Positions 27,730 to 64,000 of a stretch of 64,000 bases of DNA are shown here, piece after piece (within the stretch, counting starts at the first letter, position 1; every line of letters starts with the position of its first letter). Source of the stretch: a virus; the IMG/VR virus record IMGVR_UViG_3300015371_000006, positions 1-64,000 of that record, one strand, 5' to 3'. A model generated the notes under the pieces. That model was not told the origin of the DNA, ran no database searches, and was given only the letters and a program-made list of their open reading frames with translations. Position numbers and translations under genes: made by a program.

Positions 27730-28806
27730 CTAGGTGACGACGCTCCGGTAGGCCCCGAGGGGATCGACGGTCCCGGTCCCGAAGTCGAACCGCACCTTGA
27801 AGTCGACGCTGTCGACCTCCCAGGTGTACGGATCGTTGCCGCCGCCGCCGCTGACACGGGCCTCCGGGTTCTTGAGCAGCACCTGCGGCTCTTCGCGCCC
27901 GTTGAGGAATCCGATGGCGAATGCGGGGACGTCGTTCGGGTCCGCGAGCAGGTACCAGTTGTTCGCGTCCGACCAGAACGGATCGCGGACGACTGCGTCG
28001 CCGGGCAGGATGCCCTGCAGCGGGTTGTCCGTGCCCTTGTCGAAGATGTTCGCCCCGGCACCAGCGGCCTGCGCGATGGTGGCCGTGGCCCCCGTCAGCT
28101 GGCTGTTGATGATCCGGTTGGCGATCAGCTCCATGCGCACGTTCTGAACGGCGAGCGTGCGGGGGCGGACCGTGATCCGACGACCGTCGGAGTCGAGTCG
28201 GTTCTCCATCGTCGAGATGGCATCGGCGAGCGCGTCCTCTGAGAGGGCGGCCGTGCCGGTGTTCCCGTGGTTGGAGTGGAACAGGGCCGTGCCGTCAGGC
28301 GCGGTCGGGTTCGACTCGATGAACGCGATGATCGCCTCGGTCACGAAGTTGCCCGCTTCGAACCCCATCTCCTCGGGGTTGTCGCGGAGCAGCGCTCCGT
28401 TCTCGTCGTTGATCGCCGCCTGACGAGTGACGCTGTAGACGCCCCCGTAGGTGTCGATCTGCAGCGAGGCCGAGGGACGCTCGGTCCGACGCATCTCCGG
28501 GTACTCGCCCTGGTCGCCGACGTATCCGATCCCTCGGATGCCGTTCAGCCCCTTGATCCGGCGAGCGCGGAAGTCGTTGAGCGACTCCACCCTGCCGTAG
28601 CGGCGGTACTGCGGCTGGACGCGCGTGTAGCCCTTGTAGAGCGACGTGCTGATCGGCCCGTAGAGGAAGGACGGGAAGTCCGCCTTGCTCATGGCCTCTT
28701 GGAGGCTCAGGCCAGCGGCCTCGCCCTCCCTGACCTTCTCGTCGCGCCAGTCGATGAACGCCTCGTAGAGCATGACCGGGCGACCGATGTCTCCGTATCT
28801 GGACAC
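27730..28806 (-). CDS. Major capsid protein (Mu gpT-like, HK97 fold)
   Basis: DFPSFL, LNDFR, TYGGVYSVTRQAAINDE, DGTALFHSNHGN, FLNGREEP, FKVRFDFG..DP.GAY. Confidence 0.92.
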   Translation of the reverse strand: MSRYGDIGRPVMLYEAFIDWRDEKVREGEAAGLSLQEAMSKADFPSFLYGPISTSLYKGYTRVQPQYRRYGRVESLNDFRARRIKGLNGIRGIGYVGDQGEYPEMRRTERPSASLQIDTYGGVYSVTRQAAINDENGALLRDNPEEMGFEAGNFVTEAIIAFIESNPTAPDGTALFHSNHGNTGTAALSEDALADAISTMENRLDSDGRRITVRPRTLAVQNVRMELIANRIINSQLTGATATIAQAAGAGANIFDKGTDNPLQGILPGDAVVRDPFWSDANNWYLLADPNDVPAFAIGFLNGREEPQVLLKNPEARVSGGGGNDPYTWEVDSVDFKVRFDFGTGTVDPLGAYRSVVT

Positions 28807-28844: not shown

Positions 28845-29225
28845 TCAGGGCTTCAGATCGAGGTCGATCCGAACCTTGTTGGTCGGGGTGCCACGCTGGC
28901 CCTCGATCTCGACAACCCGCCCGAAGGAGATGTTGCCGGAGGACGTCTCGGTGAGGGCGTTCGTGGCAGCGACGATGTAGACGGGGTCGCCCTTGGCGAA
29001 CCCGCTGACCTCGTCGACCTGCACGATGCCCTTCGTGATGAGGAAGTACTCCTCGTCATCGAGGATGTCGTCCTGTAGCGCGACCGTGCTGTCCCAGCCC
29101 GTTGCGCGCTGCTTGACGGCGACGCCCACGAAGCCAGCCTCTTGGGCGGCCTGGCCGTGCGAGATGGTCGCCGACGTCGAGGTGTTCGTGACGTAGACGC
29201 CACGTCCTGGCCTGTTGTAAGGCAT
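28845..29225 (-). CDS. Capsid cement/decoration protein (DUF2190-like)
   Basis: GFVGVAV, FAKGDPVY, FGRVV; between protease and capsid. Confidence 0.78.
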   Translation of the reverse strand: MPYNRPGRGVYVTNTSTSATISHGQAAQEAGFVGVAVKQRATGWDSTVALQDDILDDEEYFLITKGIVQVDEVSGFAKGDPVYIVAATNALTETSSGNISFGRVVEIEGQRGTPTNKVRIDLDLKP

Positions 29226-30469
29226 CAGTCCTTCTCCTCAGTGCTCTTGTTGCCGTATGCCTCGTCGGGATCGATCCCGGCCTCTTCCAGCGCCTCGCGC
29301 CAGTAGGGCTTCTCGGCGGTCTCGGCCGCCGGGCTGTCGCCGTCGGTGTCCGACGGTCCCTGATCCTCGACGCGGGTCGGGTTGGCCTCGGCCATGTGCT
29401 CCCGCGCCTCCTCGATGTCGCGCTCGACGCTCTCGCGCAGCGACGCCATCGCGGTCTTCGTGACCTTCTCGTCCTCGACCGTATCCGTGCGGTCGAGCTT
29501 CGGGGTGGGCTCGCGGCCGTCCATGTCGTACTCACCCTTGAGCCGGGTGGACGTCTTGTCGGGCAGCTTCGCCTCCTCGATGAGCTTGTGCGCCTCGTCC
29601 TTCATGTCGCGGAGGGCGAGTTGGCGGTGCGCCTCAGCGGATGCCTCGTTACGGGCCTCCTCACGCGCCTCCTCCAGCTCGCGCTCGTGGCGCTCGCGCT
29701 CCTCGGTCATCTTTTCTTCGACCAGGCTGTTGGCCCGATCCTCGACCAGCTCCTTGACGGCTCGCGAGACTCCGCTGTCCGGGTCGCGCAGCGCCTCTTC
29801 CAGCTGCTTCACGCTGTCGCCTCCTTCGGCGTCGTTGTCCTCGTCTGCCGCCTCGGCCACTTCGGCCTCCTCGGCGTCTTCATCGGGGGAATCGACTTCG
29901 TCGACCATCGCCTCGATGAGGTTGGCTACGCGACCTCCCGCGCCGCCCTCTGACACCCAATCCACCGAGCCCGGAGGCTGGCTTCGGATGCCCTCTACCA
30001 CCCACACCTGTTCGCCATCCTCGATGCTCTCGTGCACGTCGGTGGCCTTGGCGCGGATTGAAGCTTCCAGCAGGTGGGGGTCTTCCTCGATGAGCTTCTT
30101 GACCTGGCCCACGGGCTTGACGGTTGCGACCACAGCGCCCTTGCCGAAGCGGCCCGACGCCGGGACGCTGTCGTCCCACTTGCTCTCGATGATCCGGCCC
30201 CCCAGGTCACGGATCGAACGCGGGAGCCCCCCGGCGGCCTTCTTGGCCTCCGGCGACTGGTGATCGATGTACATCTTCCAGCCGGTGAAGACGTCGGCGT
30301 TCTCCCGCAGCATCTCCGCGCTGTACTTGTGACGCCCGCGCCCCTGCCCGACGGTCGGGCGGATGACGTGGATCAGGACATTGCCTTCAGCGTCGAGACC
30401 AGCGGGGCGGGAGGCCAGCGCCTCCTGCAGCTCGAAAGCCTCGCGCGGGGGGGTTGCCGTAGCGCTCAT
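29225..30469 (-). CDS. Prohead protease / scaffold fusion
   Basis: Y....LR, MYIDH, RSIRDLGG, SIRA, SVDWVSEGGAGGR protease motifs followed by an acidic coiled-coil. Confidence 0.82.
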   Translation of the reverse strand: MSATATPPREAFELQEALASRPAGLDAEGNVLIHVIRPTVGQGRGRHKYSAEMLRENADVFTGWKMYIDHQSPEAKKAAGGLPRSIRDLGGRIIESKWDDSVPASGRFGKGAVVATVKPVGQVKKLIEEDPHLLEASIRAKATDVHESIEDGEQVWVVEGIRSQPPGSVDWVSEGGAGGRVANLIEAMVDEVDSPDEDAEEAEVAEAADEDNDAEGGDSVKQLEEALRDPDSGVSRAVKELVEDRANSLVEEKMTEERERHERELEEAREEARNEASAEAHRQLALRDMKDEAHKLIEEAKLPDKTSTRLKGEYDMDGREPTPKLDRTDTVEDEKVTKTAMASLRESVERDIEEAREHMAEANPTRVEDQGPSDTDGDSPAAETAEKPYWREALEEAGIDPDEAYGNKSTEEKD

Positions 30470-32162: not shown

Positions 32163-32169
32163 CGGGAAC

Positions 32170-35837: not shown

Positions 35838-35846
35838 GCCGGAACC

Positions 35847-41715: not shown

Positions 41716-41729
41716 GGCGGGCTACCTCG

Positions 41730-42032: not shown

Positions 42033-42035
42033 CGT

Positions 42036-42473: not shown

Positions 42474-42479
42474 GGTGCC

Positions 42480-43010: not shown

Positions 43011-43305
43011 GCTTTCTCCCTCCGTCCTCGATGGTCGGGCCGGTGAGGGCGTCCCACCCGGCCTTCGTGTTCTTCCAGCCCTTCTTCGCCTTGGTCGCGT
43101 CGCCGTCTGCTTCCAGGTCGGCGAGGATCTCCACCACCTCGTCTACGTCGAGGTCGAGGAAGTCGTCGCGCTCCACCCGCACCATCAGGTCTTCGACGCT
43201 GATGTGGTCGTCGTCGGGGTTGGCGAGGTTCGCCATCACTCGACGGTGGGCGTCGGAGGCGAAGTTGCCGCCGGGGTCCGGTCTGCTTCTGAAGGTGGCT
43301 GCCAT
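43000..43305 (-). CDS. Winged-helix-like hypothetical protein
   Basis: EVVEILADLEADGDA...W..TKAGWDAL; late-type promoter upstream. Confidence 0.5.
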   Translation of the reverse strand: MAATFRSRPDPGGNFASDAHRRVMANLANPDDDHISVEDLMVRVERDDFLDLDVDEVVEILADLEADGDATKAKKGWKNTKAGWDALTGPTIEDGGRKHGE

Positions 43306-43351
43306 GAAAGCGATGCTAAGGCACCCTGCGCGCCCGCCTTAGATCGGACTT

Positions 43352-44477: not shown

Positions 44478-44482
44478 GGGCT

Positions 44483-44584
44483 CTAGGGCTTGACCAGGGT
44501 GAGCACGAGGATGACCGTGACGACAGCAGCGATGTAAAGCTCCACCAGCCGTCCGCCGTGCAATGCCCGCGCCAGCCTATCCAT
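44483..44584 (-). CDS. 33-aa membrane peptide
   Basis: MDRLARALHGGRLVELYIAAVVTVILVLTLVKP; TGATG overlap. Confidence 0.4.
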   Translation of the reverse strand: MDRLARALHGGRLVELYIAAVVTVILVLTLVKP

Positions 44585-44802
44585 CACTCGATCTCTTCGT
44601 CGAAGCCGTTTCGGCGCTTGCGGTCCCGGAGGTTGAGCGCGATCTGCCCCGCGATTACGTCGGGGAGGCCGAGCAGGCCCGCGATGAGCAGCCCCACCCA
44701 TGAGGGCAGCCCCGGCGGGTTCACGAACACGATGTAGGCCAGGAACAGCAGGCCCGAGCCTCTGCGAATCCAGTCCCAGGTCCGGTCTCCCTGTTCGTTC
44801 AT
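44584..44802 (-). CDS. Small two-TM membrane protein (holin-like)
   Basis: GLLFLAYIVFV and WVGLLIAGLLGLP; charged tail. Confidence 0.55.
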   Translation of the reverse strand: MNEQGDRTWDWIRRGSGLLFLAYIVFVNPPGLPSWVGLLIAGLLGLPDVIAGQIALNLRDRKRRNGFDEEIE

Positions 44803-44822: not shown

Positions 44823-47800
44823 TTATGGCTTCAGCCCGGCCGCCTTGATGACAGCAACCAGGGTATCCGCGTTCTCGACGGCAGGATCGAGGTCAATGCC
44901 CTGGGTTGCGAGTTGCGCAAGGGCGCTCTGCACGGCGGCGGCATTCCAATCGGGGCCGAGCGACTGGGCGGCGTCCGCCAGCCGCTGGTCAGCCTCGGTT
45001 ACCTCGGGCTCGGCGTCCCACTCGTCGGCGCGGTCGACCGCCGCCTTGGCGTCCTTGTATACCTCCGGCGAGTCGTAGCTCTCGCCGGGCGTGGGCTTGA
45101 CCACCAGGTAGGTGCTCTTCGTCTTGACGATCTGCGTCCCGTTCGGCAGCGTCTCGGTGTGGCCGGGCTCGGCGTCGTTCAGCGTGGCGACTCGGTCGCT
45201 CATGTTCGGCGCGGCCGTCGGCGTCGGCTCCTCGGCGGGCGGCTCGCCGTGGTCGGCGAACGCCTTGGCCTCGATCTTCGCCGCCTTCGCGTCGGCCAGC
45301 ACCGAGTCCATGCCCCGCGCCTCCAGCTCGTTGTTGACCTGCTGGGCGGCCCACGGATCTTTGTCCTCGTAGCCGACCATCTGATCGGCGAGGCCCGCCA
45401 GCTTTGCGTCGCTCATCTTCGGGATGTTGCGGAGGTTGCCCTTCGCGGAGTAGGCGGGGCTCACCTTCTGATCGTCGCCCGGCTCGGGCTCGCCGGGGGT
45501 GAAGTCGGGAGTGGTGCCGGGCTTCGGCTGGTCGCCCAGGCCCGCCAGCGGATCTTCGCCGGAGGGCGTCGGCCCGCCCTTGTCCAGCGTCAGGTCGATC
45601 CACCCCACATCGCTCAGCGGCACGCCCTCGGCCTTCAGCGCAGTGGCGATCTCGTCGCGCACGGCGGTGTCGTTGACCTCCGGGTGGTCGGAGGAGATGA
45701 TGTCCATCGTGCCCTTGAGCATCATCTCCCGCTCGCCGGGCTCGGCGTTGACGATGGCCTTGACCATCCGGTCGACCGCCAGGTTGCCCTCGGGGCTGAA
45801 CATGCCCAGGTCCGGCGCGTCGTAGAGGGCCTTATCGGCGGCGTCGGCCTTCGCGCCTGGCTCGATGTAGGAGGCCGGTGGCGCATCCCCTGCCGGGTCG
45901 CCGCTCTTCGCGCCGACCGAGGCCACGCTCTTCTTCAGGAGGTCGTACAGGTCGTCGTCGTTTCCGGCCGTCTGCGCCGCCACGGGTGCCGGGGTGGGCT
46001 TCGGGGCGGGTTCGGGCGCAGAGGCGCTCACAGGCGCTGCCACAGGCGCAGGCGCGCCCGTGGTGAAGCCACGCGACTCCATCTCGGTCTGCACGGCCGC
46101 GTATCCGTCGGGATCGGCGTGCGCGTAGGGGCTCATGTCGGCCCACAGGTTCTTCAGCTTGCCGTCGTTCATCGCCTTGACGTTGCGGATGTTGCCCTTG
46201 GCCGAGCGCACCGGGCTCTCGGGGTTGACGGGCAGCGGGGCGGCCGGGGTGACGCTCCACTCGTCGCTGTAGTCGGGGTGCATGTCGCCGAACGCGCCAG
46301 GCGGCATCCGGTAGTGGAAGATGCGGCGCTTCTCGCCCTGGTACTTCGACGGGGCCGGGTCGGAGGTCAGGATCTCGCCCGTGGAGGGATCGATGGGCTT
46401 GGCGATCACCCAGTTGCCGTTCGCCTTGTGGACGACGTAGCCGTAGCCGTCGTGGATGAACTTCGTCCCGACGGGCACCTCGCCCAGCTCGGTCGAGGAG
46501 GTGTTGGGGGTGAAGCCGTCCGGCACGCTGCCGGGGCTCGCCTGCCCCAGCTTCAAGCCGCCCAGCTCGCTCAGCACCTTCGCGCTCGCCTTCTTGTCGG
46601 AGCCGTTCGCGTACTCATCCCAGGCGGGCAGCAGCACAGCGCTGACGTCCGGCGGTGAGCGGTCGAGTGCGTCGGCGAGCATGACCGCGTTGACGGGGAA
46701 GGTCTGCACCCGGCCGGTGACGCCGCCGGAGCTGATGTTGATTCCGTCGGGCGTGCGCTCCAGCTTCGCGCCGCTGTTGAGCTGCGTCTCGCCGAAGCGA
46801 TCCAGCTCAGCGCCGTTCTTCAGCAGGGTCACCTCGTACTGCGTGCCGACCGCCAGGCCGGGGCTGTACTGGCCGTAGTTCGGGTCGAGCATGTCGGCCG
46901 CTGCGTCGGCGATCTCGTTGTCGAAGCGGTCCTCGTCGCTGTAGAGGCCCCGCGAGGTGCCCTTCGGGTTGCCGTGCACGGTGTCGAGCGCGTCCTCCAG
47001 GCGCTGCAGCAGATCGACGTACTCCTGCGCGCGGTAGTCGTCGTGCTCGGCGACCACCGGGAACCAGTCGCTCTGCACGTCGCCCGCCAGGTCGTCGATG
47101 AACTCGCCGTCGGCGTCCTTGCCCTGCGCCTCCACCTTGGCGATCTCCGTCTCCCACAGCTTCGGGCTCGCCTGGCCATCCTTGCCGAAGATGACGCCCG
47201 TGCCCTTCGCCAGCGGGTGCACGCCCAGGCCCACGCCCTCGTCGACGGCGTCGGGAAGCTTCATCGGGTCCGGCCAGGGGTTCGCCTTCGCCCAGATGCC
47301 CGTGCCCTCGGCCTCCTGGCGCTTCGCCCGCGCAGCGTCGGCCTTGTTCGCGGCGGCCTGCGCCTTCGCCCCGCCCGCGAGGAAGCCGGGGTAGCCGGGG
47401 CTTTGCTGGCCGGGCAGCCGGTAGAGCTGGGCGCGGCCGTCCTTCCACACCTCGACGACGCCCTGCGCCTCGTTGACGTTCACCTCGTCGGCCTTCGGGA
47501 AGTGCTTGGCCTTCAGGTCGGCCTGCAGCTTCTCGCGGCTTTGGGCGGCCTTCGGATCGACCACCTTCATCGCCGGGCTGCGCTGGCCCATCTTGCGGTC
47601 GTCGATCTCGCGGTCGACGGCCTCGTCGCGCGCAGCTTCGTTGGCGAGTTCGTCGTGCAGCTCAGCGACGTCGTCGGGCGTCTTCGCGTCGCCGAAGACG
47701 AAGGTGCCCTCCAGGTCGGTGATGACGTAGCTGTGCTCGTCGTCGCGCGCGATGACGGCGTTCGGTGCGACCGCCACCTCGTCGCCCACGGCCAGCTTCT

Positions 47801-50800
47801 CGGCGGCGTCCAGCGCGTCCTCGCGGCTCAGCGACGAGGAGGGGCTCGCCTGGCCTCCGGCGAAGCGACGCAGGTCGGGGTAGGTGGCGGCGAATTGCGC
47901 GTCGCTCATCGGCCGCCCACGCACGGAGCCCGTGCTGCCGACGGTCTGCGGGTCGCCCTCGTAGATGTACCAGCCGCGTCCGGCTCGCTGGGCGACGACG
48001 CGCCCGCCGGTCAGGCCGGGCTCGGGGCCGGGGCGGTCCCACACGTACTCGTCCAGCTTGCCGCCCCGTTCCTTGCGCACCTCCAGGCGGCCGCTGCCGG
48101 GGCTGCTTCCGGGGCTCCACTGGCCGGTCTTCTGGATCGCCAGCGCAGCTTCGACGGCCGGGCGCGGGACCATCTCCTCGTAGTCGAACTTCAGCATCAC
48201 GGCGTCGCCGTCATCCTCGTCGAGAGCGCTCTGCAGTTGCTCCTTCGTGAAGGCCCAGGCCAGCATCCCCGGCTCGTCGGTGTAGTCGTAGCTCGCCTGG
48301 TCGGTGCGGCCCTGCGGGATGAAGCGCTTGCCTGACTTGTCTGGCGCGGTCGCGCCCAGGCGCGCGTAGATCTCGGGCTTGCCGCCGCTGGCGGTCATGA
48401 ACGCTTCGCTCTCGCGCTTGCCGTCCTTGCCCACCCGGTACGCCTTGCCGTTGGTCGTGATCCCGCCGTAGCCGGAGTTGCCGTAGATCATGAAGCGGTT
48501 GCCGTCGTTGTCGACCGCAGCGGTGCCGTACTTGTCGGCCCAGCTCTGCGAGTCGGCGTTGATCAGCTTGTCCATCGAGCCCCACACGTAGCGGGCCTTG
48601 GAGGTGTCGCCCTCCCAGCCCTTCGTCCAGCCGAGCTTCTTCTTGCCCGTGCCGGGTGACGCCTGGCCGGGGCTGTGCTGACCGCCCATCGAGTCGGTGA
48701 AGCCGGGCGGCGGTTCGACTTCCTGATCGCTGGTCTCGACCTTGTCCAGCGGGACCACGAGCGTGCCGTGGTTGTCGGTCTTGACCCGCAGCTGGCCGAA
48801 CTTGTGGTCGACGACCTCGCCCTGGACGAGATCCTCCTGCCCGCCGATCCTCGCCACCTTCGTGGTGATGTTCGTGCCCACCGGGTAGGCGGCCCTCGCC
48901 GCTGCGTCGCGCTCCTCGCGGCTGAGCTTTCCGCCGGGGCTGGCCTGGCCCAGTGGCCCCGTGGTCACCGGCACCGAACCGCCCGCGTTCTTGAGCTGGC
49001 GCTTCTCGCCCTTGGTCAGCTCGCGCTTCTCGGCGACCCGACTGAGCAGCTGGGCGATCTGCTTGTCCCGCATCTCGGCGTTCGCCGAGGTCCGGCTGCG
49101 GATCTGGCGGATCGAGCGCTGGATCGACTCGTGCTCGGGCGTCCCACCGAGGGTCATCGTGGGGCTGCGCTGACCCAGCGGCGGCATGCTGCTCACGCCA
49201 CCGGACGCCAGCCTGCGGTTGTGAGCGCCCTTCGCCCGCGCGTAGTCGTTGGCCTGCTTGCGGGCGAGGTAGTCCTGGTCGTCGAGGACGGCTTCGGCGG
49301 CTCGGGGCGGGTCGTATCCCTCCCCGACCGAACCGTCGGCGTAGTGGACGTCCACCAGCCCGTCCTCGCGGGCCTTCACCCAGGTCAGGCCATAGCTCTG
49401 CTCCTCGCCGGGCCAGAGGTAGTCGAGGTCGCCGACGATCTCGTCCTTGCTCAGCGCCTCGCCGGGGCTGCGCTGGCCGCCGGGCTTCGCGTCGCGCAGC
49501 TTGACGATCAGGTCGAGATCCTCGGGGTCGATGATCGTCTTGTTGCGCAGTGACTTCGCCAGGTTGCCGAACACCCGGCGGGTGTTCTCCTTGTTGACGC
49601 CGTTCTTCGCCACGTCGGCGGCTAGGTTGCCGTCGGTCATCTTGATCATCGACACCACGTCGTCCATCTCGGCGTCGCTCATGTGCGTGTCGATTCGGCT
49701 GCGCTTCTTCGCCAGCTGCCGCAGCATGTCGTGGTCGCTGAGGCCGGGGCTCGCCTGGTAGCTGTCGGCGCGCATCTTCTCCAGCGCCGCGTCGTAGTCC
49801 AGCTTCGGCAGCTCGGGTGCCTTGCCGGTGGACGGGACGCGCTTGCGGCGTTCCAGGGCTCGCCGCTGCGGCGCGAGGGAGCGCACGGCAGCGTCGGCCT
49901 CCTCGGAGGGCGCGGCCTGCAAGCTCGGCGGGGAGAGCTGCAGCTTGTGGCCCGCGACCATCACCGACTTGCCGTCGGGGGTCACCTTGCCGCGCGAGCC
50001 GCCCAGGCTCACGCTGTCGCCGGGACGCAGCACGCGGCCGCGCCCCTCGGGGGCGAAGGTGCCGTCGGGCAGGCGGCGGATGCGGGCGATCCGGGCGGCC
50101 AGCTCGGAGGTCTTGCGCGCGGCTCCGCGCAGGCTCGCCTCCAGCAGCTCGCAGGCGGCTTCCTGCACGTCGATGTTCGGGTAGCGGCGCTTGACGGCGG
50201 CGCGGACCTTCTTCTTCTCGTCGGCCGATCCGTGCTGGCTTACGCGCGCGAGCGCGTTGCGCGCGTGGGCCTCGTCGTGGATCGGGTAGCGGCGGTCCGG
50301 CAGCGCGAAGTCGGAGTCGGGACGCTTCTTCCGAGCGGCGGCCGTCAGCGTGCCCTCCTCGACCTCCTTCTTGTTCGCGGCCGCCTTGGCCTTGAACTTC
50401 TCGTCGCGGGCCTTGCTCAGGGAGTGGCCGCACTTCTTGCAGTCGGCGTTGCGGGCGCTCTGCTCGGTGCCGCACTCGGGACACTTGACGCTCTGCTCGG
50501 TTGTCTCGTCGCCCTTGCCCTCCTTCTCGGCCTTCGTGTCAGCCTCGGCCAGGCTCTGGTCGCGCTGGGGGTTGCGGGCGTTGCGCTTCTTGCGGCGCTT
50601 GTTGCGCTCGGCATCGGTCAGCTTCGGCTCGGGGGTGGAGGTATCAGCCGCAGGCTTGTTTCCCAGCAGGCGCTTGCGCAGCTTGCGCTTGTCCTGCGGG
50701 GTGAGCGCGCCTGGCGTGACTTGAGCCGCCTCGCCGCCTGAAAGCAGCGCCGTAGCAGTCTGGTGACCCACGATCCCGTCGACCATTAGCCCGTTTTCGC

Positions 50801-52346
50801 GCTGGTATTGCCTGACCGCCTGTTGGAAGCCCTGGCCGCCGCCGCCCACCTTGTCGGCGATGGCCGATCCCAGGCCACCGGAGGCCGAGCGGATGAACTG
50901 GCCGCCGCCGGTCCGGCCCTTCGCGGCGCGCGGGTGCTTCTTTTCGAAGTCGCCTCCGGCCGACTGGCCGTCGCGGCCCTTCGGCTTCTTGCCGTAGTTC
51001 ATCCCCCAGCGCGTGGTCCCGAAGGGCGTCGTGATCGACTTCGTGCGGAACTCCTCCACGTCGGCGATGCTCTCCTCCAGCTTGTCGCCGTTCTTGCCGT
51101 GGCGCTTGAGCAGCGCCCACGTCTCCGGCCCGATGGCCCCGTCGGCCTTCAGCCCGTAGCGGCGCTGGATGCGCTTGACGCCCTTCTCGGTCTCCGGCCC
51201 GAAGCGCCCGTCCGGCCCGGCGTCGCCGACGTAGGTGCCCATCGCACCCATCGCCTCCTGGGCGGCCTTGACGGAGGGGTCGCCCTCGCCCTGTCCGACG
51301 CCCCGGCCCTTCGCCAGCCAGACGTTCGCGCTGGGCGTATCCGTGGGCGTATCCGTGGGCGTATCGTCGGCGTCCGCGTCGCCCTCGGGCTCGCTCGGGT
51401 TCGCCTCCTCATCAGGATTTCCCCCATTGGGGGAACCGGCGCGCAGCTTCTCCACGTCCTCGGGCGAGGTGCCGCGCATGGCGATCCGGGTCTTGTCGCC
51501 CAGCACGCCGTCGGGCTTCAGCTCGTGGTCGCCCTGAAAGCTCTCGACCGCGCCCTTGGTCTCCTCGCCGTACTCCCCGTCGACGCCGACGTCGTAGCCC
51601 AGCGTCTTCAGCCTGGCCTGGGCCTGGCCTACGAGTTCCCCGGACCCTCCCTGCTTGAGGGTCAGCCCGTCGCTATGTGCCTCGGTAGGGCGGCCTCGTG
51701 GGCTACGCGCTTTGACCTTGGACATGCGCCGCTCTGCATCAGCGACCGGGTCGTCCTTGGCCTCGCGTACCTCCCCGCCCAATTCCTTGGCGAGAGCACG
51801 AAGCTCGGTTGCCTCGGTCAGCAGCGCTCTCGCTGCCTGCGCCTGAGCGCGGGGTTCGGCCGGTGGGCCACCCATCTGCACGATCCGCACGGATTCGCTG
51901 AGCGGAGTTTCGATCAGCTCGGGGACGGCCTTGACCAGTCCCGCCTTGCCCGTTGTCCTCGGTTCGCTGAGCGGTCCCAGCGCGCCCTCGATGACGACCA
52001 GCCGCGCTTGCACCTCGCGCAGCACCCGCGCCGCCTCCTCGTCGCTGAGGATCAGGTCGGCGACCTCGGCCTCGGTCAGCTTCTTGCGCGAGTGCTTCAG
52101 TCGCCCCGGATCGAACTTGTCGAGCAGCACGGCGCAGCGGCGGTTCGCGTGATCCTTGCTGAGCCCGTGCTTGACCTGGTCGCGCACGCAGGACGTGAAC
52201 GGGTGCGGTTTCGCCAGGTAGTGCTTCGCCAGCGGCGCGATCTTCTTCGTGTCGCCAGGGGTTACGTCCGCCGTGCCGGGCTTGCTGAAGGTCTCCACCT
52301 CTTCGAGGTCACGCCTCTCGGGCGGCTGTTGCTGCGCCTCGGCCAC
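44823..52346 (-). CDS. Giant modular protein (~2507 aa): three peptidoglycan-binding domains, zinc ribbon, DUF6582-like domain, then GQxSP-delimited modules
   Basis: Probable GTG start at 52346 just after a TACGAT -10; DGxxGxxT PG-binding motifs; CPECG..CKKCG; SDFALPDRRYPIHDEAHARNALAR; 13 GQxSP motifs. Confidence 0.8.
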   Translation of the reverse strand: MAEAQQQPPERRDLEEVETFSKPGTADVTPGDTKKIAPLAKHYLAKPHPFTSCVRDQVKHGLSKDHANRRCAVLLDKFDPGRLKHSRKKLTEAEVADLILSDEEAARVLREVQARLVVIEGALGPLSEPRTTGKAGLVKAVPELIETPLSESVRIVQMGGPPAEPRAQAQAARALLTEATELRALAKELGGEVREAKDDPVADAERRMSKVKARSPRGRPTEAHSDGLTLKQGGSGELVGQAQARLKTLGYDVGVDGEYGEETKGAVESFQGDHELKPDGVLGDKTRIAMRGTSPEDVEKLRAGSPNGGNPDEEANPSEPEGDADADDTPTDTPTDTPSANVWLAKGRGVGQGEGDPSVKAAQEAMGAMGTYVGDAGPDGRFGPETEKGVKRIQRRYGLKADGAIGPETWALLKRHGKNGDKLEESIADVEEFRTKSITTPFGTTRWGMNYGKKPKGRDGQSAGGDFEKKHPRAAKGRTGGGQFIRSASGGLGSAIADKVGGGGQGFQQAVRQYQRENGLMVDGIVGHQTATALLSGGEAAQVTPGALTPQDKRKLRKRLLGNKPAADTSTPEPKLTDAERNKRRKKRNARNPQRDQSLAEADTKAEKEGKGDETTEQSVKCPECGTEQSARNADCKKCGHSLSKARDEKFKAKAAANKKEVEEGTLTAAARKKRPDSDFALPDRRYPIHDEAHARNALARVSQHGSADEKKKVRAAVKRRYPNIDVQEAACELLEASLRGAARKTSELAARIARIRRLPDGTFAPEGRGRVLRPGDSVSLGGSRGKVTPDGKSVMVAGHKLQLSPPSLQAAPSEEADAAVRSLAPQRRALERRKRVPSTGKAPELPKLDYDAALEKMRADSYQASPGLSDHDMLRQLAKKRSRIDTHMSDAEMDDVVSMIKMTDGNLAADVAKNGVNKENTRRVFGNLAKSLRNKTIIDPEDLDLIVKLRDAKPGGQRSPGEALSKDEIVGDLDYLWPGEEQSYGLTWVKAREDGLVDVHYADGSVGEGYDPPRAAEAVLDDQDYLARKQANDYARAKGAHNRRLASGGVSSMPPLGQRSPTMTLGGTPEHESIQRSIRQIRSRTSANAEMRDKQIAQLLSRVAEKRELTKGEKRQLKNAGGSVPVTTGPLGQASPGGKLSREERDAAARAAYPVGTNITTKVARIGGQEDLVQGEVVDHKFGQLRVKTDNHGTLVVPLDKVETSDQEVEPPPGFTDSMGGQHSPGQASPGTGKKKLGWTKGWEGDTSKARYVWGSMDKLINADSQSWADKYGTAAVDNDGNRFMIYGNSGYGGITTNGKAYRVGKDGKRESEAFMTASGGKPEIYARLGATAPDKSGKRFIPQGRTDQASYDYTDEPGMLAWAFTKEQLQSALDEDDGDAVMLKFDYEEMVPRPAVEAALAIQKTGQWSPGSSPGSGRLEVRKERGGKLDEYVWDRPGPEPGLTGGRVVAQRAGRGWYIYEGDPQTVGSTGSVRGRPMSDAQFAATYPDLRRFAGGQASPSSSLSREDALDAAEKLAVGDEVAVAPNAVIARDDEHSYVITDLEGTFVFGDAKTPDDVAELHDELANEAARDEAVDREIDDRKMGQRSPAMKVVDPKAAQSREKLQADLKAKHFPKADEVNVNEAQGVVEVWKDGRAQLYRLPGQQSPGYPGFLAGGAKAQAAANKADAARAKRQEAEGTGIWAKANPWPDPMKLPDAVDEGVGLGVHPLAKGTGVIFGKDGQASPKLWETEIAKVEAQGKDADGEFIDDLAGDVQSDWFPVVAEHDDYRAQEYVDLLQRLEDALDTVHGNPKGTSRGLYSDEDRFDNEIADAAADMLDPNYGQYSPGLAVGTQYEVTLLKNGAELDRFGETQLNSGAKLERTPDGINISSGGVTGRVQTFPVNAVMLADALDRSPPDVSAVLLPAWDEYANGSDKKASAKVLSELGGLKLGQASPGSVPDGFTPNTSSTELGEVPVGTKFIHDGYGYVVHKANGNWVIAKPIDPSTGEILTSDPAPSKYQGEKRRIFHYRMPPGAFGDMHPDYSDEWSVTPAAPLPVNPESPVRSAKGNIRNVKAMNDGKLKNLWADMSPYAHADPDGYAAVQTEMESRGFTTGAPAPVAAPVSASAPEPAPKPTPAPVAAQTAGNDDDLYDLLKKSVASVGAKSGDPAGDAPPASYIEPGAKADAADKALYDAPDLGMFSPEGNLAVDRMVKAIVNAEPGEREMMLKGTMDIISSDHPEVNDTAVRDEIATALKAEGVPLSDVGWIDLTLDKGGPTPSGEDPLAGLGDQPKPGTTPDFTPGEPEPGDDQKVSPAYSAKGNLRNIPKMSDAKLAGLADQMVGYEDKDPWAAQQVNNELEARGMDSVLADAKAAKIEAKAFADHGEPPAEEPTPTAAPNMSDRVATLNDAEPGHTETLPNGTQIVKTKSTYLVVKPTPGESYDSPEVYKDAKAAVDRADEWDAEPEVTEADQRLADAAQSLGPDWNAAAVQSALAQLATQGIDLDPAVENADTLVAVIKAAGLKP
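46533..49760 (-). repeat. Dispersed 15-nt / 5-aa motif GGC CAG NNN AGC CCC (GQxSP), 13 copies
   Basis: Copies start (+ coordinates) at 46533, 46860, 47163, 47397, 47574, 47841, 48111, 48654, 48669, 48936, 49161, 49464 and 49746 (last is YQASP). Confidence 0.85.
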
Positions 52347-52374
52347 GTCGTCATCGTAACCGCGCCCTGGGCGG

Positions 52375-52584
52375 CTACCCCGGTTGGACTTCGATCCGTA
52401 GCGGCGTGTTGCCCGGTGCGGTGACGTGGATGATCCGGCGGCGGTGCTCGGTGCGGACCTCGCTGATCTTGATATCGGGGTCGGCGACCAGCGCCTGCTC
52501 GACGCCACTGAAGCCCCGGTTCAGCCGCTCGCGCGTGTCAGGCGGCGACGAGGAGGTCTTCGTCTCGGGCGTCGATGAGTCCAT
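52375..52584 (-). CDS. Hypothetical protein (start uncertain)
   Basis: Fills the gap; C-terminal part looks globular. Confidence 0.35.
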   Translation of the reverse strand: MDSSTPETKTSSSPPDTRERLNRGFSGVEQALVADPDIKISEVRTEHRRRIIHVTAPGNTPLRIEVQPG

Positions 52585-55600: not shown

Positions 55601-56632
55601 TCATGCAGCGAGCACCAGGTCCAGACCCTTCTGCTTGAGGTTCTGATCCTCGAAGCTCCGCTGCACCTGGTCGGTGCGCTTCGTGACCCGCCGGAAGTGG
55701 TCGGCGAATTCCGCGACCGCGTTCGCGGCCACCCACTTCGTGCCGGGGCTGTTCCCGGTCGTGTCGCCGTCCGGCGCGGTGCCGTTGAAGAGCGCGTTCA
55801 GCAGCTCGCGGTTGTCCTCGCGGTTGCGGATTGCGATCTTGCGGTCGGCGTCGCGCATCTCGGCCTCCTGCGCCTCGGTGAATCCGATCAGCGGCCGGAC
55901 CACCTTCTTGTCGAAGCGGTCGGGGCTCATCGCCTCGCGGGCGAGTTCGTCGCCGAGCTTCTTCATGGCGGCGTTCCAGTTGAGGGTGATGTCCATGACC
56001 TTGCGGGCCTCGCCCAGCTTCTCGGCCATGTCACCCGTGTGCCGGAACTTGTAGGTGCGGGGGCTGTTCTCCGACTTGGAGAGCGCCCATCCGAGGGTGT
56101 TCGCGCAGACGATCCGCACGTCGGTCGCGGCAGCAGTGACCGCCATCGAGCCGTCGTGCGAGTTGGCGCAGTAGACGTAGCGGGCGATCTCGTCGCCGCC
56201 GATCTCCACCAGCTCGGGGATCTTCGCCAGCACCCACACGCGGCGTCCGTTGCCGAGGCTGCCTGCCGTCTCGATCTCGATCTCGCCGCCGAGCAGCGCG
56301 TCGAGCCAGAGGAAGGCGTCGCGGTTCGGGACCACCTTGTAGTCGTTGCTGACGATCCCGAGGACTTCCGAGGTGTCCTCGCGGATGTTCGCCCGCCAGT
56401 TCGCAGCCTGCACGAGGTTGCTCTCCATCTGCGGGACGAAGATGCCGGGCATGCCCTCCTGCGGGGGGAGCGCGACGAACACGTCGCCCTGGTTGACGGC
56501 CCAGGTCAGCTCGGCCTTCTCCAGCGCCTCGTCGATGGACTTCGGATAGTCGTCGAGGACGACGCCGAGTCCGTGCCAGGGCATGCTGCGGACGCTGAAC
56601 ATGCTGTCCGCTTCCTTGATTCCGTGAGCCAT
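55601..56632 (-). CDS. DUF932 family protein
   Basis: MAHGI...PWHGLG, LGIVS..YKVVPNRDAF, ETAGSL..GRRVW, NSHDGS, RIVCANTL, RHT. Confidence 0.9.
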   Translation of the reverse strand: MAHGIKEADSMFSVRSMPWHGLGVVLDDYPKSIDEALEKAELTWAVNQGDVFVALPPQEGMPGIFVPQMESNLVQAANWRANIREDTSEVLGIVSNDYKVVPNRDAFLWLDALLGGEIEIETAGSLGNGRRVWVLAKIPELVEIGGDEIARYVYCANSHDGSMAVTAAATDVRIVCANTLGWALSKSENSPRTYKFRHTGDMAEKLGEARKVMDITLNWNAAMKKLGDELAREAMSPDRFDKKVVRPLIGFTEAQEAEMRDADRKIAIRNREDNRELLNALFNGTAPDGDTTGNSPGTKWVAANAVAEFADHFRRVTKRTDQVQRSFEDQNLKQKGLDLVLAA

Positions 56633-60067: not shown

Positions 60068-63000
60068 TCACGAGTCCAGCTCACGGACCCGGTTCACGCC
60101 GCTGACCAGGAACGCCTTGCCGGTCGCGGGCCGCCAGATCAGAACCAGGCCCCCTCCGGCGGCCTGCACGTAGATGTATTCGTTGCCGCCCTTGTCGCGG
60201 AAGCCCTGGCCCGGCATCAGATCCTTGACGTGGGGGTGCTTGTATTTCCCGCCGCTTCCCCATGCGGATTTGTAGCCCAGCAGATCGGTCATCGGGACGC
60301 CGCTGATGCTCCCGTGCTCGGCGAGGATCTTCGCCAGCAGCGCCTTCGCGTCGCCGCCCGTGTTCGTCTCGGCCTCCACGTCGGGGCTGCTCAGCTCGGT
60401 CGCAGCCTTCGGCTGCACGTCGTCGAGCTTGGTCTGGTCGCTGACCACCTGCAGCAGCCCGCTCTGCAGATCCTTGACGATCACCTGGTTGCCCTGGCTC
60501 GGGCCGGGCGGGGTCTTGAAGGCGACCACCTGGAAGGGATGCCCGCTCGCGTTCTCGAACTCGTACTCGGGTTCCATGTCGTAGAGGTAGCCCCCGGTGA
60601 ACGGCGTCGTCTCGGTTTCGGCCTCCGGGTCGGCGGCGGGCGGTTGCTCGGGGAGGTCCGCCAGCGGCGTGCCGGGGCTCACCTTGGTCATCCCGGCGGC
60701 GTCGGGGCCGGAAGGCCCCACGACCTTCTCGCCGTTCGCCAGCTCGGCCACGACGATCCACGGCTCGCCATCCGGGCCGGTGAAGGTTTCGCCGCCCTGC
60801 AGCTGGTCGATGTTCGTCGGCTCGGGGTCGGGCGGTGTCGGCGCGACGCTGATCTTCGCGGGCTTCAGCGCCCCGACCACTCCGGTGATCGTTGACTCGG
60901 TGCCGTTCTGCAGGCTGACCGCCTTCTCGTGGTCCGACTTCATGAACTTGTAGCCGCCGTATTCGTAGGTGCTGCCGATGGGCAGGTCGTCGACGGCGAG
61001 GCCTTCGGTGTTGTCGTAGGTCGGCGGGTCGTGGTCGGGGATCGTCTGCGTCGGCGTCGGCGTCTGTGGCGGCAGCGCCATGCCGCCGGGCGGGCCGGGC
61101 ACAAAGCCCTCTTCGAACTTCAGCGTCTCGCCGGGGTCGCCGCTACTCCCGAAGCTCTTCTTCAGCAGCGTCACCTCGACCTGTCCGTTGACCGGGCCGC
61201 CCTGCACCTCGTAGATCGAGCCGGAGGCCATCTTGATCTGCGTCCCTGCGGGCATCTCGCCCAGCGTGGCGGTGGTCGGCTGGAAGGCCGCTTCGGGGAA
61301 CGGCGCGGCCAGGCCCTCGGGCGGCTCCACGCTGATCGGCGTGCCCCCTCCCGCCGGGGTCGCCAGCGCCTTCACGTCCTTGGCGTAAACCATCTTCAGG
61401 CCGCCCGTGGTGTAGACGCCCTTGATCCCGGTGCCCGCCACCTGGTTGTCGGTGATCTTGACCGTCTGCCCGTCCGTCAGCTCCACGACGTCGCCGTTCG
61501 CCAGCGAGTTGAAGAGTTCCTCCTGGTCGGCGGTTGCGATTCCCGCCTCGGGCGCTGGCCAGGTGATGACGGTCGGGTTGTCGACCGTCGTGTCCATCGG
61601 CACGGTGCCCCCGGTCGCCACGTTCTCCAGGTCGACGAAGCCGTCGAAGTTGTTCGTCACCTTGTAGCGGACGTCCTGGTAGATGACGGTCTGCCCCACC
61701 GGGATGTCGGCGAGCTTCACCTGCGCGCCGGTGGCCCCCGGAGGTGCCGCAACAGCGCCCGGCTCGTCTACGTCGGTCATCTGCGGCCCCGGCTGCGTGA
61801 CCACCTTCTCCAGGCTGACCGTGTACTCCTTCTGGCCCTTCTGGATCAGCAGCGCGTCCTTGCCCGACGGCGTGGTCGCTGATCCGACCACGGTGCCGGT
61901 CCAGGTCTTGCCGTCGGCGCGCTTCATCTCGACCGTCTGCCCCAGCTCGTAGCCGTGGTGCTTGATCGGCTCAGCGGGTGCCATGTCCAGGCCCTGTCCC
62001 GGCGGCGGCGGGGCGTCCATCGTCTCCTCGGGCAGCTCGCGCACGCGCAGCTTTCCGCTCACGGTGAAGTTCGTCTGCCCGTCGGAGATGATCGGCTCGT
62101 CGCCCGCGACCTGCAGCTTGAACAGCTTTCCGGTCTTGTCGCGGAACACGGTCCCGGCGGGCAGGTTCTTGATCCGCTCGTGCTTGTAGGCCCCGCCCGG
62201 CCCGTGGGAGGACTTGTAGGGCACCAGCTGGTCGCCGATGTCGAACAGCGCGTCCTCGGCCTGCTCGGACTGGTTGAGGCTCGGCGACGTGGTTGCGGGC
62301 TTGAGCGCAGGGTGGCTTTCGCCGTAGGTGACGTTGTCGCTCGGGGCGGGCATCGTCGTCTTCTGCGGGTTCAGCGTCCCGTCCTCGCGGATCAGGTTGC
62401 CGGTGATCTGCTTCTCGCCCGACTCGCCGACCGACACGCCGGTCACCTGCCACACCTTGCCGTCGTGGATGAACGTGTCGAAGTTCTCCAGCTGCTCGGC
62501 TTGGACCGTGTCGCCCGGCTTCAGCTCGGAGTGCGGGGTCAGCGACTTCGGCGGCCCGGACTTCTTGACCTGGCTCTCGTTGGTCGGGCTCTCGTGGTCG
62601 TGCCCCACGCCACCGTCTGCCGACTCCAGGGACTTGACCTTCTTCTTCAGCAGCGCCTTGCCGGTCTCCCCGGTGTCCAGGTTCGTGAAGTAGACCCAGC
62701 TCTCGTCCTTGCTGTCCACGCGGTAGGGGCGGATGCGCGAGCCCCGGCCGCCGTGGAACAGGTCGCCGTCGGCGAGGTCGCCCATCTGCGTGGACTTGCC
62801 GATCTTCCACGCCTTCGGGTTGAACAGGCCCTGCAGCGCGTCGTTGTCAGGGTCGATCTGCACGACCTTCGCGCCGGGCTTGGCCTCCTTGATCGAGACG
62901 ATGCCGTTCTTCTTGACCGAGGTGACGACGTGCTTGGCCCCGTTGTAGGCCAGCGTCATCCCCTTCTCCGGCGGCTGCTTCAGCTTGAAGTAGCCCTCGA

Positions 63001-64000
63001 TTTCGACCAGCTGCACGGCCTTGTAGTCGCCGTTGATGGTGCCGGTCAGGCCGCTGTTCAGGTCTTGGATCTGCGTCAGGCCCAGCGTGGGCGTGTCCTT
63101 GATCTCATACGGCGTCCCGTTGACCTTGAACTTGTCGCCGATCTGCATCTTGGCGATGGGCTTCGCGTCGTCGGTGCCGAATTGCCAGGCGGCCGGGTCG
63201 AAGCCGCTCTCCTCGACCTTGGTCGGCGGCACGTTGCCCAGCAGCTTGTAGTTCGGGTAGCCCTCTTGGAAGGCCATCTCCTCGCCGTTGTATTTCAGCC
63301 CGCCCTCGCCGTCGGGCACGATCTTGTGGATGCGCAGCCCGCTGGGGCTGGCAGGGTCGGCGTTGACGTAGTAGAGGGTGCCCTGCAGGCCCATCAGGAA
63401 GTCACCTGCGCCCGCGTGCGACTCGGCTGCCTCCAGCGCCTCGGGGTTGCCGTTGGGGTCGAGGTTGTCGAATGGCAGCCCCAGCTTCCCCAGCTCCTCG
63501 GGTGACCAGCCGGACTTGATCTCGGGCAGCTTGTCGGCGTACTCCTCCAGCGCGGTGATCGCAGCGGGCGGTGGCGGCAGGTGCGCCGAGCCCTTCATCT
63601 TGATCTCGGCTGCGACCGGCGGCACGGGCAGCGGCTCGCCGCCTCGGACAGCCGACAGGAACATGCGGATCGTGTCGCCGCCTCGGGGCTGCTTGGTCAT
63701 CTTCCCCAGCCACTGGCGGTAGCCGGACGGCACCTCGTCGTTGTGGTAGCTGATCGCCTGGTCCGGGTCCAGCACCATCTGGTAGGGGATCGCCACCTCC
63801 TGCTCGCCGTGGCAGCTCCCCTGCGCGTTCTTCATCGGCCCCGAGACGTAGGTCGCCATGACGATGTGGCGCATGCTGACCGCCGTCGCCACGCCGGTCT
63901 GCTTCTTGCCGATGGCCTCGCTGTTGAAGCTGCAGCTCAGGCCGCTGAACACCCTCGCCTTGCCGCTGATGAACTTCTTCCACCACGAGGTCGGCTTCGC
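60068..64000 (-). CDS. 3' part of a giant multidomain protein: ART-like segment plus ~13 SH3/KOW-like repeats (5' end outside the window)
   Basis: Frame open to position 64000; SCS...GEQEV motif; recurring (L/M)xxGxx(F/V)...G..(Y/W)xV units. Confidence 0.75.
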   Translation of the reverse strand, partial: AKPTSWWKKFISGKARVFSGLSCSFNSEAIGKKQTGVATAVSMRHIVMATYVSGPMKNAQGSCHGEQEVAIPYQMVLDPDQAISYHNDEVPSGYRQWLGKMTKQPRGGDTIRMFLSAVRGGEPLPVPPVAAEIKMKGSAHLPPPPAAITALEEYADKLPEIKSGWSPEELGKLGLPFDNLDPNGNPEALEAAESHAGAGDFLMGLQGTLYYVNADPASPSGLRIHKIVPDGEGGLKYNGEEMAFQEGYPNYKLLGNVPPTKVEESGFDPAAWQFGTDDAKPIAKMQIGDKFKVNGTPYEIKDTPTLGLTQIQDLNSGLTGTINGDYKAVQLVEIEGYFKLKQPPEKGMTLAYNGAKHVVTSVKKNGIVSIKEAKPGAKVVQIDPDNDALQGLFNPKAWKIGKSTQMGDLADGDLFHGGRGSRIRPYRVDSKDESWVYFTNLDTGETGKALLKKKVKSLESADGGVGHDHESPTNESQVKKSGPPKSLTPHSELKPGDTVQAEQLENFDTFIHDGKVWQVTGVSVGESGEKQITGNLIREDGTLNPQKTTMPAPSDNVTYGESHPALKPATTSPSLNQSEQAEDALFDIGDQLVPYKSSHGPGGAYKHERIKNLPAGTVFRDKTGKLFKLQVAGDEPIISDGQTNFTVSGKLRVRELPEETMDAPPPPGQGLDMAPAEPIKHHGYELGQTVEMKRADGKTWTGTVVGSATTPSGKDALLIQKGQKEYTVSLEKVVTQPGPQMTDVDEPGAVAAPPGATGAQVKLADIPVGQTVIYQDVRYKVTNNFDGFVDLENVATGGTVPMDTTVDNPTVITWPAPEAGIATADQEELFNSLANGDVVELTDGQTVKITDNQVAGTGIKGVYTTGGLKMVYAKDVKALATPAGGGTPISVEPPEGLAAPFPEAAFQPTTATLGEMPAGTQIKMASGSIYEVQGGPVNGQVEVTLLKKSFGSSGDPGETLKFEEGFVPGPPGGMALPPQTPTPTQTIPDHDPPTYDNTEGLAVDDLPIGSTYEYGGYKFMKSDHEKAVSLQNGTESTITGVVGALKPAKISVAPTPPDPEPTNIDQLQGGETFTGPDGEPWIVVAELANGEKVVGPSGPDAAGMTKVSPGTPLADLPEQPPAADPEAETETTPFTGGYLYDMEPEYEFENASGHPFQVVAFKTPPGPSQGNQVIVKDLQSGLLQVVSDQTKLDDVQPKAATELSSPDVEAETNTGGDAKALLAKILAEHGSISGVPMTDLLGYKSAWGSGGKYKHPHVKDLMPGQGFRDKGGNEYIYVQAAGGGLVLIWRPATGKAFLVSGVNRVRELDS

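Follow-up and report, generated by a model that had tools for sequence, protein, structure and literature searches.

We propose a model for giant #3, a very large open reading frame (ORF) of a tailed phage, in which a short recurrent peptide, GQxSP, marks the places where one long chain would be divided into many small proteins. The gene lies in the window analysed here, the first 64 kb (64,000 nucleotides, nt) of the 111,596-bp IMG/VR contig IMGVR_UViG_3300015371_000006. Under this model giant #3 would be a cargo polyprotein made up of a conserved N-terminal carrier, a hypervariable string of about 12 modules and a conserved C-terminal part, the modules being small, independently folding units that each follow an unstructured G-Q-x-S-P-(G) peptide. 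The linker would be a signal recognised by a factor acting in trans, most likely an endoprotease that divides the chain into small proteins, while the candidate prohead protease of the phage would trim the carrier, the scaffold and the capsid protein at (L/V)xE sites. Two codes would then operate side by side, one for head-maturation cuts at xE and one for module release at GQxSP, possibly after injection, and the small proteins so released would be ones that other phages encode as separate genes. Arrays of this kind probably extend and are reshuffled by the copying of linker-plus-module units, which would leave the motif codons partly uniform. The model builds on the statistics of the motif, its position between domains, the variability of the modules and their free-standing homologues, the linker dialects of related phages and the concordance of these dialects within genomes. 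From these we infer packaging, injection and cleavage of the array, the identity of the reader and an effector role for the modules, and we regard the chances that a protease recognises GQxSP-type peptides and so frees packaged effector modules as evenly balanced. A literature search found no published description of such linkers, in agreement with the initial annotation of the stretch, which knew of no family that carries them.

The GQxSP linkers and the modules of giant #3

Giant #3 occupies 44823..52508 on the minus strand and encodes 2561 amino acids (aa) from a GTG at 52508 (P0001, whose numbering is used for all residues of giant #3), with a G+C content at third codon positions (GC3) of 0.92 over the full length of the frame. 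The database form of the protein (P0002, 2507 aa) starts 54 codons later at 52346, which is the probable true start. The initial annotation had described thirteen motifs between 46533 and 49760, one of them YQASP, and both the count and the coordinates proved exact, as the frame holds 12 GQxSP and one YQASP within aa 917-1992. In order along the protein, and all on the minus strand, these are linker 1 (YQASP, aa 917, 49746..49760), linker 2 (GQRSP, aa 1011, 49464..49478), linker 3 (GQRSP, aa 1112, 49161..49175), linker 4 (GQASP, aa 1187, 48936..48950), the tandem linkers 5 and 6 (GQHSP-GQASP, starting at aa 1276 and 1281 and covering aa 1276-1285, 48654..48683), linker 7 (GQWSP, aa 1462, 48111..48125), linker 8 (GQASP, aa 1552, 47841..47855), linker 9 (GQRSP, aa 1641, 47574..47588), linker 10 (GQQSP, aa 1700, 47397..47411), linker 11 (GQASP, aa 1778, 47163..47177), linker 12 (GQYSP, aa 1879, 46860..46874) and linker 13 (GQASP, aa 1988, 46533..46547). 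The free position is Ala six times, Arg three times and His, Trp, Gln and Tyr once each, and the spacings between successive linkers are 94, 101, 75, 89, 5, 181, 90, 89, 59, 78, 101 and 109 aa. From the composition of giant #3 only 0.043 GQxSP would be expected against the 12 seen, the maximum in 20,000 shuffles was 3-4, and all six frames of the window contain just two other copies.

The motifs divide a module array (46533..49760, minus strand, aa 917-1992) into about 12 modules that are unrelated and 54-176 aa long, with (G/Y)QxSP ahead of each. The earlier impression that the segments are unrelated and range from acidic to basic is supported by a best module-versus-module BLAST E of 0.47 and by isoelectric points from 4.1 to 10.9, and cryptic tandem repeats were rejected as an explanation because the modules are unrelated and the two that were modelled differ in fold. 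A Pfam scan of giant #3 (E <= 1) found no domain in the array and no peptidase family. AlphaFold2 (AF2) models gave compact cores at aa 1197-1256 and aa 1413-1461, with the linkers, including linker 4 and the tandem linkers 5 and 6, in coil of low confidence (predicted local distance difference test, pLDDT, 55-67). The core of module 4 (48741..48920, minus strand, aa 1197-1256) is modelled as a helix followed by a four-strand Tudor/SH3-like barrel at a pLDDT of ~90; a fold search with this core returned only generic Tudor/SH3-like barrels (E ~0.03) and gave no functional lead, and the same search with the core of the second modelled module, 6b, returned no match. In both the Pfam results and the AF2 models no predicted domain extends across a motif, domains that did so being what the initial annotation had named as evidence against its reading.

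Several of the modules also exist as proteins of their own. With aa 900-2010 as the query, a full HMMER search across 1.8 billion representatives returned 30 matches, some of them giants and many of them small single-module proteins. The hits to module 4 (aa 1187-1275) are ~15 proteins with lengths of 59-97 aa, those to the C-terminal half of module 6 are 63-161 aa long, and for module 3 the similarity lies at the end of a protein of 190 aa. This half of module 6, designated 6b (48126..48323, minus strand, aa 1396-1461), belongs to a family recognisable by 'PxGRTDxxSYDYTD...LKFDYEE' with free-standing homologues of 63-77 aa. In three independent small proteins, P0017, P0018 and P0020, the initiating Met is the first conserved residue of module 6b, and P0017 and P0018 stop within a few residues of the position that GQWSP takes in giant #3. 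The suggestion that each segment resembles a small independent protein therefore holds for at least three modules, whose free-standing homologues (60-190 aa) begin or stop where the linker lies.

The array is flanked by two regions that carry no linker motif. The N-terminal carrier (49761..52346, minus strand, aa 55-916) is conserved in ~19 relatives and contains a small conserved N-domain, three PG_binding_1 domains (aa 289-592) and a zinc ribbon (aa 675-697), the latter two recognised by Pfam, together with a weak Pfam match to DUF6582 at approximately aa 711-786 and a near-invariant RRLPDGTFAP block at aa 805-860. The conserved C-terminal region covers 44826..46532 (minus strand, aa 1993-2561). 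Two side observations concern the carrier. A short motif, (K/E)(K/L)HPRxxxGxF, at window ~50900-50960 (aa 517-536) recurs elsewhere in many giants and small proteins, P0003, P0007, P0009 and P0031 among them, at differing positions. The DUF6582-like domain (window 50151-50378) is 60-72% identical to differently placed stretches of other giants, at the N-terminus of P0054 and P0055 and in the middle of P0059, and is ~61-64% identical over ~60 aa to hypothetical proteins of the Streptomyces phages Frankenweenie, Kela and JustBecause; it is a further module that occurs both free-standing and embedded.

The same peptide recurs in giant #1 (genome 65542-72813, minus strand, 2423 aa), which lies outside the window and has seven GQxSP against 0.024 expected, at aa 1095, 1117, 1262, 1341, 1487, 1644 and 1963. 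Here the motifs bracket domains known to Pfam, namely GNAT at aa 1136-1197 between the motifs at 1117 and 1262, an ADP-ribosyltransferase (ART) at 1436-1481 between those at 1341 and 1487, and Zeta_toxin at 1708-1867 between those at 1644 and 1963. The conserved C-terminus of giant #1 holds a kinase-like domain (HipA/PI3K-like, a weak lead) and a Vip2/CdtA-like ADP-ribosyltransferase, and a Pfam scan of the protein at E <= 0.001 found no peptidase family. When metagenomes were scanned with this C-terminus, 61 loci were recovered, only one of which is a close relative (L050, with QASP seven times), the others having the kinase-like domain only and no arrays. Outside giants #1 and #3 the ~28,000 aa of coding sequence scanned genome-wide contain a single further GQxSP, and the capsid, protease-scaffold and portal proteins contain none. 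This copy, GQASPG at aa 500 of the 1390-aa tape measure protein (19663..19677, minus strand), lies in an Ala/Gly-rich stretch and is probably due to chance or of independent origin, since it is single and its Ser codon is TCG, unlike that of 19/20 array copies; if not a chance match, it would be a genuine site of processing.

Linker dialects and their concordance within genomes

A search with the N-terminal part of giant #3 recovered ~30 giants of 1400-3800 aa. BLAST comparison with 19 relatives showed that aa 140-925 and ~1890-2561 are conserved and that in between each protein has an array essentially of its own; just three modules of giant #3 have a counterpart among the 19, and a linker stands at the start or the end of the stretches in common. 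The variation in module content that the initial annotation had proposed to look for in homologues is thus present, with a central array almost unique to each relative between conserved N- and C-terminal parts. Array-less relatives also exist, for example a protein of 1500 aa in G002, a phage with a complete genome of 130 kb, and the array-less giants form the sister clade of the array-bearing ones (support 98/98 and 91/95).

Each of the ~20 array-bearing relatives has its own homogeneous linker, with spacings of typically 60-130 aa. These dialects comprise GQxSP, GMxSPG, M[AD]SP, GMASP[AN], MATPT, KKSPGTTG, PPQ[TS]PG, EKxDPG, GKADPGT, GGKASP, ARSEGPG, R[ST]EG[VI] and GLxSP, and they have the core [QMKRL]-x-[STDE]-[PG] in common. 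At orthologous positions the linkers have changed in concert, as the GQWSPG, GQYSPG and GQASPG of giant #3 (linkers 7, 12 and 13) correspond to NMWSPG, GMRSPG and AMASPA in P0003. In the first of these pairs the free Trp is kept while Gln has become Met, and we therefore read this site as two point changes and not as the replacement of a joint. Elsewhere one shared module is flanked by GKADPGT in P0007 and by GQxSPG in giant #3. In the related phage G001 (58-59% GC), M-x-S-P is present in 24-25, 11 and 4 copies in the homologues of giants #3, #1 and #2, respectively.

Concordance of the linkers within genomes was assessed blind, by pairing giant #3-family and giant #1-family proteins on contigs of identical size in bp. 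Where both giants carry arrays, the two have the same linker in 5/5 pairs, which together cover four dialects. GQxSP is found in both genes on the 111,596-bp contig of the source phage and on a contig of 74,066 bp, GMASP in the giant #3 family and MASP in the giant #1 family on a contig of 35,799 bp that is probably the same phage as G001, MATPT in both on one of 31,680 bp, and PQxPG in both on one of 50,788 bp. In the two further pairs, of 134,735 bp and 116,483 bp, neither gene has an array. This genome-wise co-variation of linkers across genes, together with the concerted change at orthologous positions, leads us to favour a signal that would be read in trans. Between the options raised by the initial annotation, a protease site, a recombination joint or a docking motif, these comparisons lend partial support: a trans-read signal is favoured and a joint that acts purely at the DNA level is not.

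The putative reader of the linkers and alternative explanations

The candidate prohead protease and scaffold of the source phage is P0064 (414 aa, 29225..30469, minus strand). For its N-terminal 195 aa, 21/30 of the nearest ESM Atlas clusters are Peptidase_S77 (score 0.95), with a template modelling (TM) score of 0.62-0.65 to a cluster of S77/S80 type, and the remainder of the protein is an acidic coiled coil, typical of a scaffold. As the protease domain had no hit in Pfam, in PHROGs or among PDB sequences, its assignment as a gp21/S77-S80-like prohead protease is taken as a good lead and not as proof. Sites of the form [LVIM]xE[AGS] number 15 in P0064 itself against 3.0 expected and 11 in the carrier of giant #3 against 3.2 expected, a count that 0/5000 shuffles reach, and they are not enriched in the module array (4 against 3.6 expected). 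The major capsid protein (27730..28806, minus strand) has three (L/V)xE(A/G) sites, LYEA, VREG and LQEA, within its first 42 aa (window 28681-28806). In G001, whose protease-scaffold is 71% identical to P0064 and whose linker is GMASP, the capsid protein has LYEA, KAES and LAEA at the corresponding places. Since the Glu-directed sites are kept in G001 while the linker has changed, GQxSP is most likely a second code with a different reader, and the gp21-like prohead protease was disfavoured for that role, the capsid (L/V)xE sites being alike in the source phage (G000) and G001 though their dialects differ.

The phages that carry the dialects differ in GC content (69%, 63% and 58-59%), which makes a host protease a possible reader. 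Comparison of the array-bearing G000 and G001 with the array-less G002 and G004 yielded no convincing array-specific gene, and a DUF932 gene was rejected as an array-specific partner on account of a distant copy in G004. The genome gave no match to MuF (PF04233) at E <= 1, and a scan of the large ORFs and ten more unannotated ones, many small ORFs lying outside it, showed no peptidase family. Several points weigh against protease recognition as the role of the linkers. No protease of matching specificity was identified, and the genome gave no match to MPTase-PolyVal (PF18818) at E <= 1. The presumptive capsid sites of the gp21-like protease are conserved between G000 and G001, so that this protease leaves the change of dialect unexplained, and a cut after the conserved Ser would put Pro at P1', where it is unusual. 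Concordance and codon uniformity could also come from recombination between arrays, and for four of the five concordant pairs a shared contig is deduced from equal size in bp alone.

The codons of the motif bear directly on whether the linker is conserved as peptide or as DNA. The initial annotation had pointed to constrained DNA with AGC for Ser in 12 of 13 copies, and this is correct, with a bias that is only moderate against gene-wide usage (AGC 12/13 against 48%, P = 1e-3; CCC for Pro 11/13 against 41%, P = 2e-3). The exact string GGCCAGNNNAGCCCC is present in 6 copies in the window and in none of 100 shuffles. Across giants #1 and #3 the Ser codon is AGY in 19/20 copies, against 31% for Ser before Pro genome-wide, three giant #1 linkers have ~18-20 nt in common, and in giant #3 of G001 the motif codons are TCG in 19/24 copies against 14% (P = 8e-13) and GCA in 17/18 against 35%. 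Such uniformity within a genome, beyond codon usage, would suit a linker that is a recombination joint only, a short piece of in-frame DNA for the insertion, deletion and swapping of modules with no role in the protein, as would the nucleotides common to the giant #1 linkers, the hypervariable array between conserved flanks and the use of one dialect in two or three genes per genome. We nevertheless hold a joint alone to be quite improbable, because the middle codon is free in giant #3 (six residues) and splits the identity into 6 and 9 nt, because giants #1 and #2 of G001 and giant #1 of G003 encode the same peptide with mixed codons (TCG, AGC, AGT and TCA; all four CCN), because the Trp at x is kept through the change from Gln to Met, and because the same module is flanked by different dialects in P0007 and giant #3. 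The mixed synonymous codons imply that the entity conserved across genes and genomes is the peptide, which argues against a purely DNA-level joint, and the comparison of synonymous sites with amino acids that the initial annotation had suggested gives the same answer across genes. Nor are the modules integron-like cassettes, as they share one uninterrupted frame and are joined through 15 nt of coding sequence whose middle codon is free and whose synonymous codons are mixed in other genes. The uniform class of Ser codon and the ~18-20 nt common to three linkers do suggest that new linkers are copied from existing ones, and on this pattern linker-plus-module units are probably duplicated or recombined, so that the arrays lengthen and are reshuffled; recombination is accordingly regarded as how the arrays evolve and not as why the motif is kept.

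The remaining alternatives concern what a conserved peptide would do. Were the chain to stay uncut, as beads on a string, the linker would be a hinge, a docking site or a site of modification, for example of Pro-directed Ser/Thr phosphorylation by the kinase-like domain of giant #1 with the Asp/Glu dialects as phosphomimics. Most dialects do have an [S/T]-P core, with D-P or E-G in others, and the C-terminus of giant #1 gives kinase-like leads (ESM Atlas 0.82-0.85 to HipA_2 and PI3_PI4_kinase; the homologue P0164 has PF00454); the models place the linkers in coil, a chain of small, flexibly linked modules could pass through the tail tube uncut, and no matching protease was found among the ORFs scanned. 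However, a simple hinge would have no need of four fixed residues that change in concert at orthologous positions, the array-less G002 and G004 have the kinase-like domain as well and its assignment as a kinase falls below the reliability threshold of the tool, and the free-standing homologues show that modules work as separate proteins, so that we judge an uncut chain to be unlikely. If the prohead protease had a broader or a second specificity, it might itself cut the linkers within the prohead, much as T4 internal proteins and giant-phage head proteins are processed. Such cutting would call on the only protease-like gene recognised, the gp21/S77-S80-like domain, and the P3-x-P1 layout of [QMK]-x-[STDE] resembles A-X-E and L-x-E, with Glu in ARSEGPG and RTEGV. 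This is very doubtful given that the capsid and scaffold (L/V)xE(A/G/S) sites are the same in G001, where a protease of 71% identity accompanies Met in place of Gln in the linker, that the capsid, scaffold and portal proteins are without GQxSP, and that fragments of 60-100 aa would be expected to leak as scaffold peptides do. Hardly credible, finally, is a 2A-like 'stop-carry on' at x-S-P-G or D-P-G that separates the modules during translation with no protease. Many dialects end in P-G (SPG, TPG or DPG), a loose resemblance to NPG|P, the motif of eukaryotic viral 2A peptides, but MATPT, GMASP[AN] and RTEGV lack P-G, no upstream nascent-chain segment is conserved, and 2A peptides have no known function on bacterial ribosomes.

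The reading of the linkers as protease recognition sites can be taken one step further, though only tentatively. Tailed phages of this clade would then have two proteolytic codes, a Glu-based one for the prohead protease in head maturation and a rapidly rewritten linker code for a host-encoded or co-injected protease. The latter would free a swappable kit of small effectors from the giant injected carriers only after delivery, and the concerted rewriting of the linkers in two or three genes per genome would record co-evolution with that reader.

Relation to known systems and genomic setting

The closest described class is that of the polyvalent proteins of Iyer et al. 2017 (PMC5512222). These are giant multidomain proteins, encoded beside virion and packaging genes, with ART, GNAT, zeta-toxin-like, kinase-like and peptidoglycan-directed domains, and the predictions made for them are joint entry into the host with the DNA and proteolytic processing, for which embedded zincin-like MPTase or other peptidase domains are invoked (PMC5512222). 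The word 'linker' is not used in that paper (PMC5512222) and no repeated inter-domain motif is described there. Giants #3 and #1 are alike in joining many unrelated domains in one polypeptide, and giant #3 is placed between the terminase and probable portal genes on one side and the protease-scaffold and capsid genes on the other, on the same strand. They are unlike polyvalent proteins in that MuF and MPTase-PolyVal are missing here, that the modules are mostly tiny and unannotated, and that a lineage-specific peptide stands at the borders.

A second comparison is with head maturation. The prohead protease of phage SPN3US (gp245) follows an A-X-E code in P3-x-P1 format and makes several cuts per head protein (PMC10052503), and its succession of specific, free and specific residues is paralleled in the linker core. 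As with T4 IPI-III and Alt and the head proteins of giant phages, a gp21/S77-S80-like protease-scaffold candidate occurs here together with a carrier, a scaffold and a capsid N-terminus rich in xE, and the Vip2/CdtA-like C-terminal ART of giant #1 is an analogue of T4 Alt. Unlike gp21-type substrates, the array linker has no Glu at P1 and is absent from the capsid, scaffold and portal proteins, and xE sites are enriched in the carrier and not in the array; known gp21-type substrates, moreover, lose a propeptide and are not chains of a dozen unrelated cargo modules.

Three further systems may be regarded as functional analogies. MARTX toxins are secreted bacterial arrays of effector domains, with a C80 cysteine protease that is activated by inositol hexakisphosphate (InsP6) and cuts at Leu-based linker sites. 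Giant #3 resembles them in its several unrelated modules and its strain-variable repertoire, and release by cuts in unstructured linkers is a MARTX feature that it may share; it differs in that Pfam detected no C80 protease domain in either giant and in that the linker is longer and lineage-specific. In the polyproteins of RNA viruses, 3C-like proteases cut between Gln and Gly or Ser, and the site co-evolves with the protease. A single product with a recurrent short Gln site is the likeness here, whereas giant #3 belongs to a DNA phage, no protease of chymotrypsin type was recognised there, and the position after Gln is not fixed. Polymorphic toxins, in turn, have borders of cassette exchange marked by VENN in CdiA and by PxxxxDPxGL in Rhs, where the border is also cleaved. 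They have one border, a C-terminal toxin and an immunity gene, unlike the 7-25 borders per protein and the lack of evident immunity genes seen here.

If the linkers are cut sites, giant unannotated phage proteins could be parsed into functional units from sequence only, and each phage could then yield dozens of small proteins as candidates for host takeover or anti-defence; the anti-defence content that the initial annotation had suggested for the modules is not supported by the present results. The processing predicted for polyvalent phage proteins, whether before or after injection, would gain explicit candidate sites that differ between related phages, and these sites, apparently distinct from those of capsid maturation, would imply a further protease or other reader. 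The lineage-specific, genome-wide rewriting of a four-residue signal would also be a clear example of co-evolution between substrate and reader, and the linker dialects could serve as orthogonal cleavage tags for engineering.

The source contig has a GC content of 69% and is 89% complete by CheckV. It encodes a myovirus-like phage with a tail sheath, a baseplate wedge, a tape measure protein and an HK97-type capsid protein, all on the same strand. The capsid protein is <30% identical to that of any cultured isolate, and there is no close cultured relative; among 50,697 phage records the giant #3 array had no match by tblastn, and the N-terminal part of giant #3 matched only peptidoglycan-binding domains of endolysin type and small DUF6582-like genes. 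Following transcription, the genes run from the terminase through the probable portal, giant #1, giant #2, the DUF932 gene, giant #3, an island, the Ku/ligase pair and P0064 to the capsid gene, and therefore the giants sit where packaged minor head proteins are usually encoded in the head-gene module. The terminase is of GpA type (genome 82194-83927), and the probable portal (genome 77723-79822) has a weak Phage_portal_2 match (E 1e-3) and is conserved in three relatives. Giant #2 (window 60068..64000 and on to genome 65077, minus strand, 1669 aa) has no GQxSP and no Pfam domain and is kept at 29-38% identity in all four compared phages. The DUF932 gene (55601..56632, minus strand) lies upstream of giant #3, an arrangement kept in G001.

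The block at window 35500-44800 looks like an accessory island between giant #3 and the Ku/ligase pair. It holds ~10 minus-strand genes without homologue in G001, G002 and G004, among them those for a 1229-aa repeat protein (46 bits to the TX13_rpt Pfam model) and a 476-aa Laminin_G_3/ConA-like protein. Beyond it, an ATP-dependent DNA ligase (31224-32609, minus strand) and a Ku-like end-binding protein (33439-34287, plus strand), both kept in G001 and G002, are a pair of the non-homologous end joining type, as in some actinophages. A Rpf-type transglycosylase-like protein (PF06737) is encoded at genome 103401-104042, and together with the Ku/ligase pair and the high GC content it hints at an actinobacterial host.

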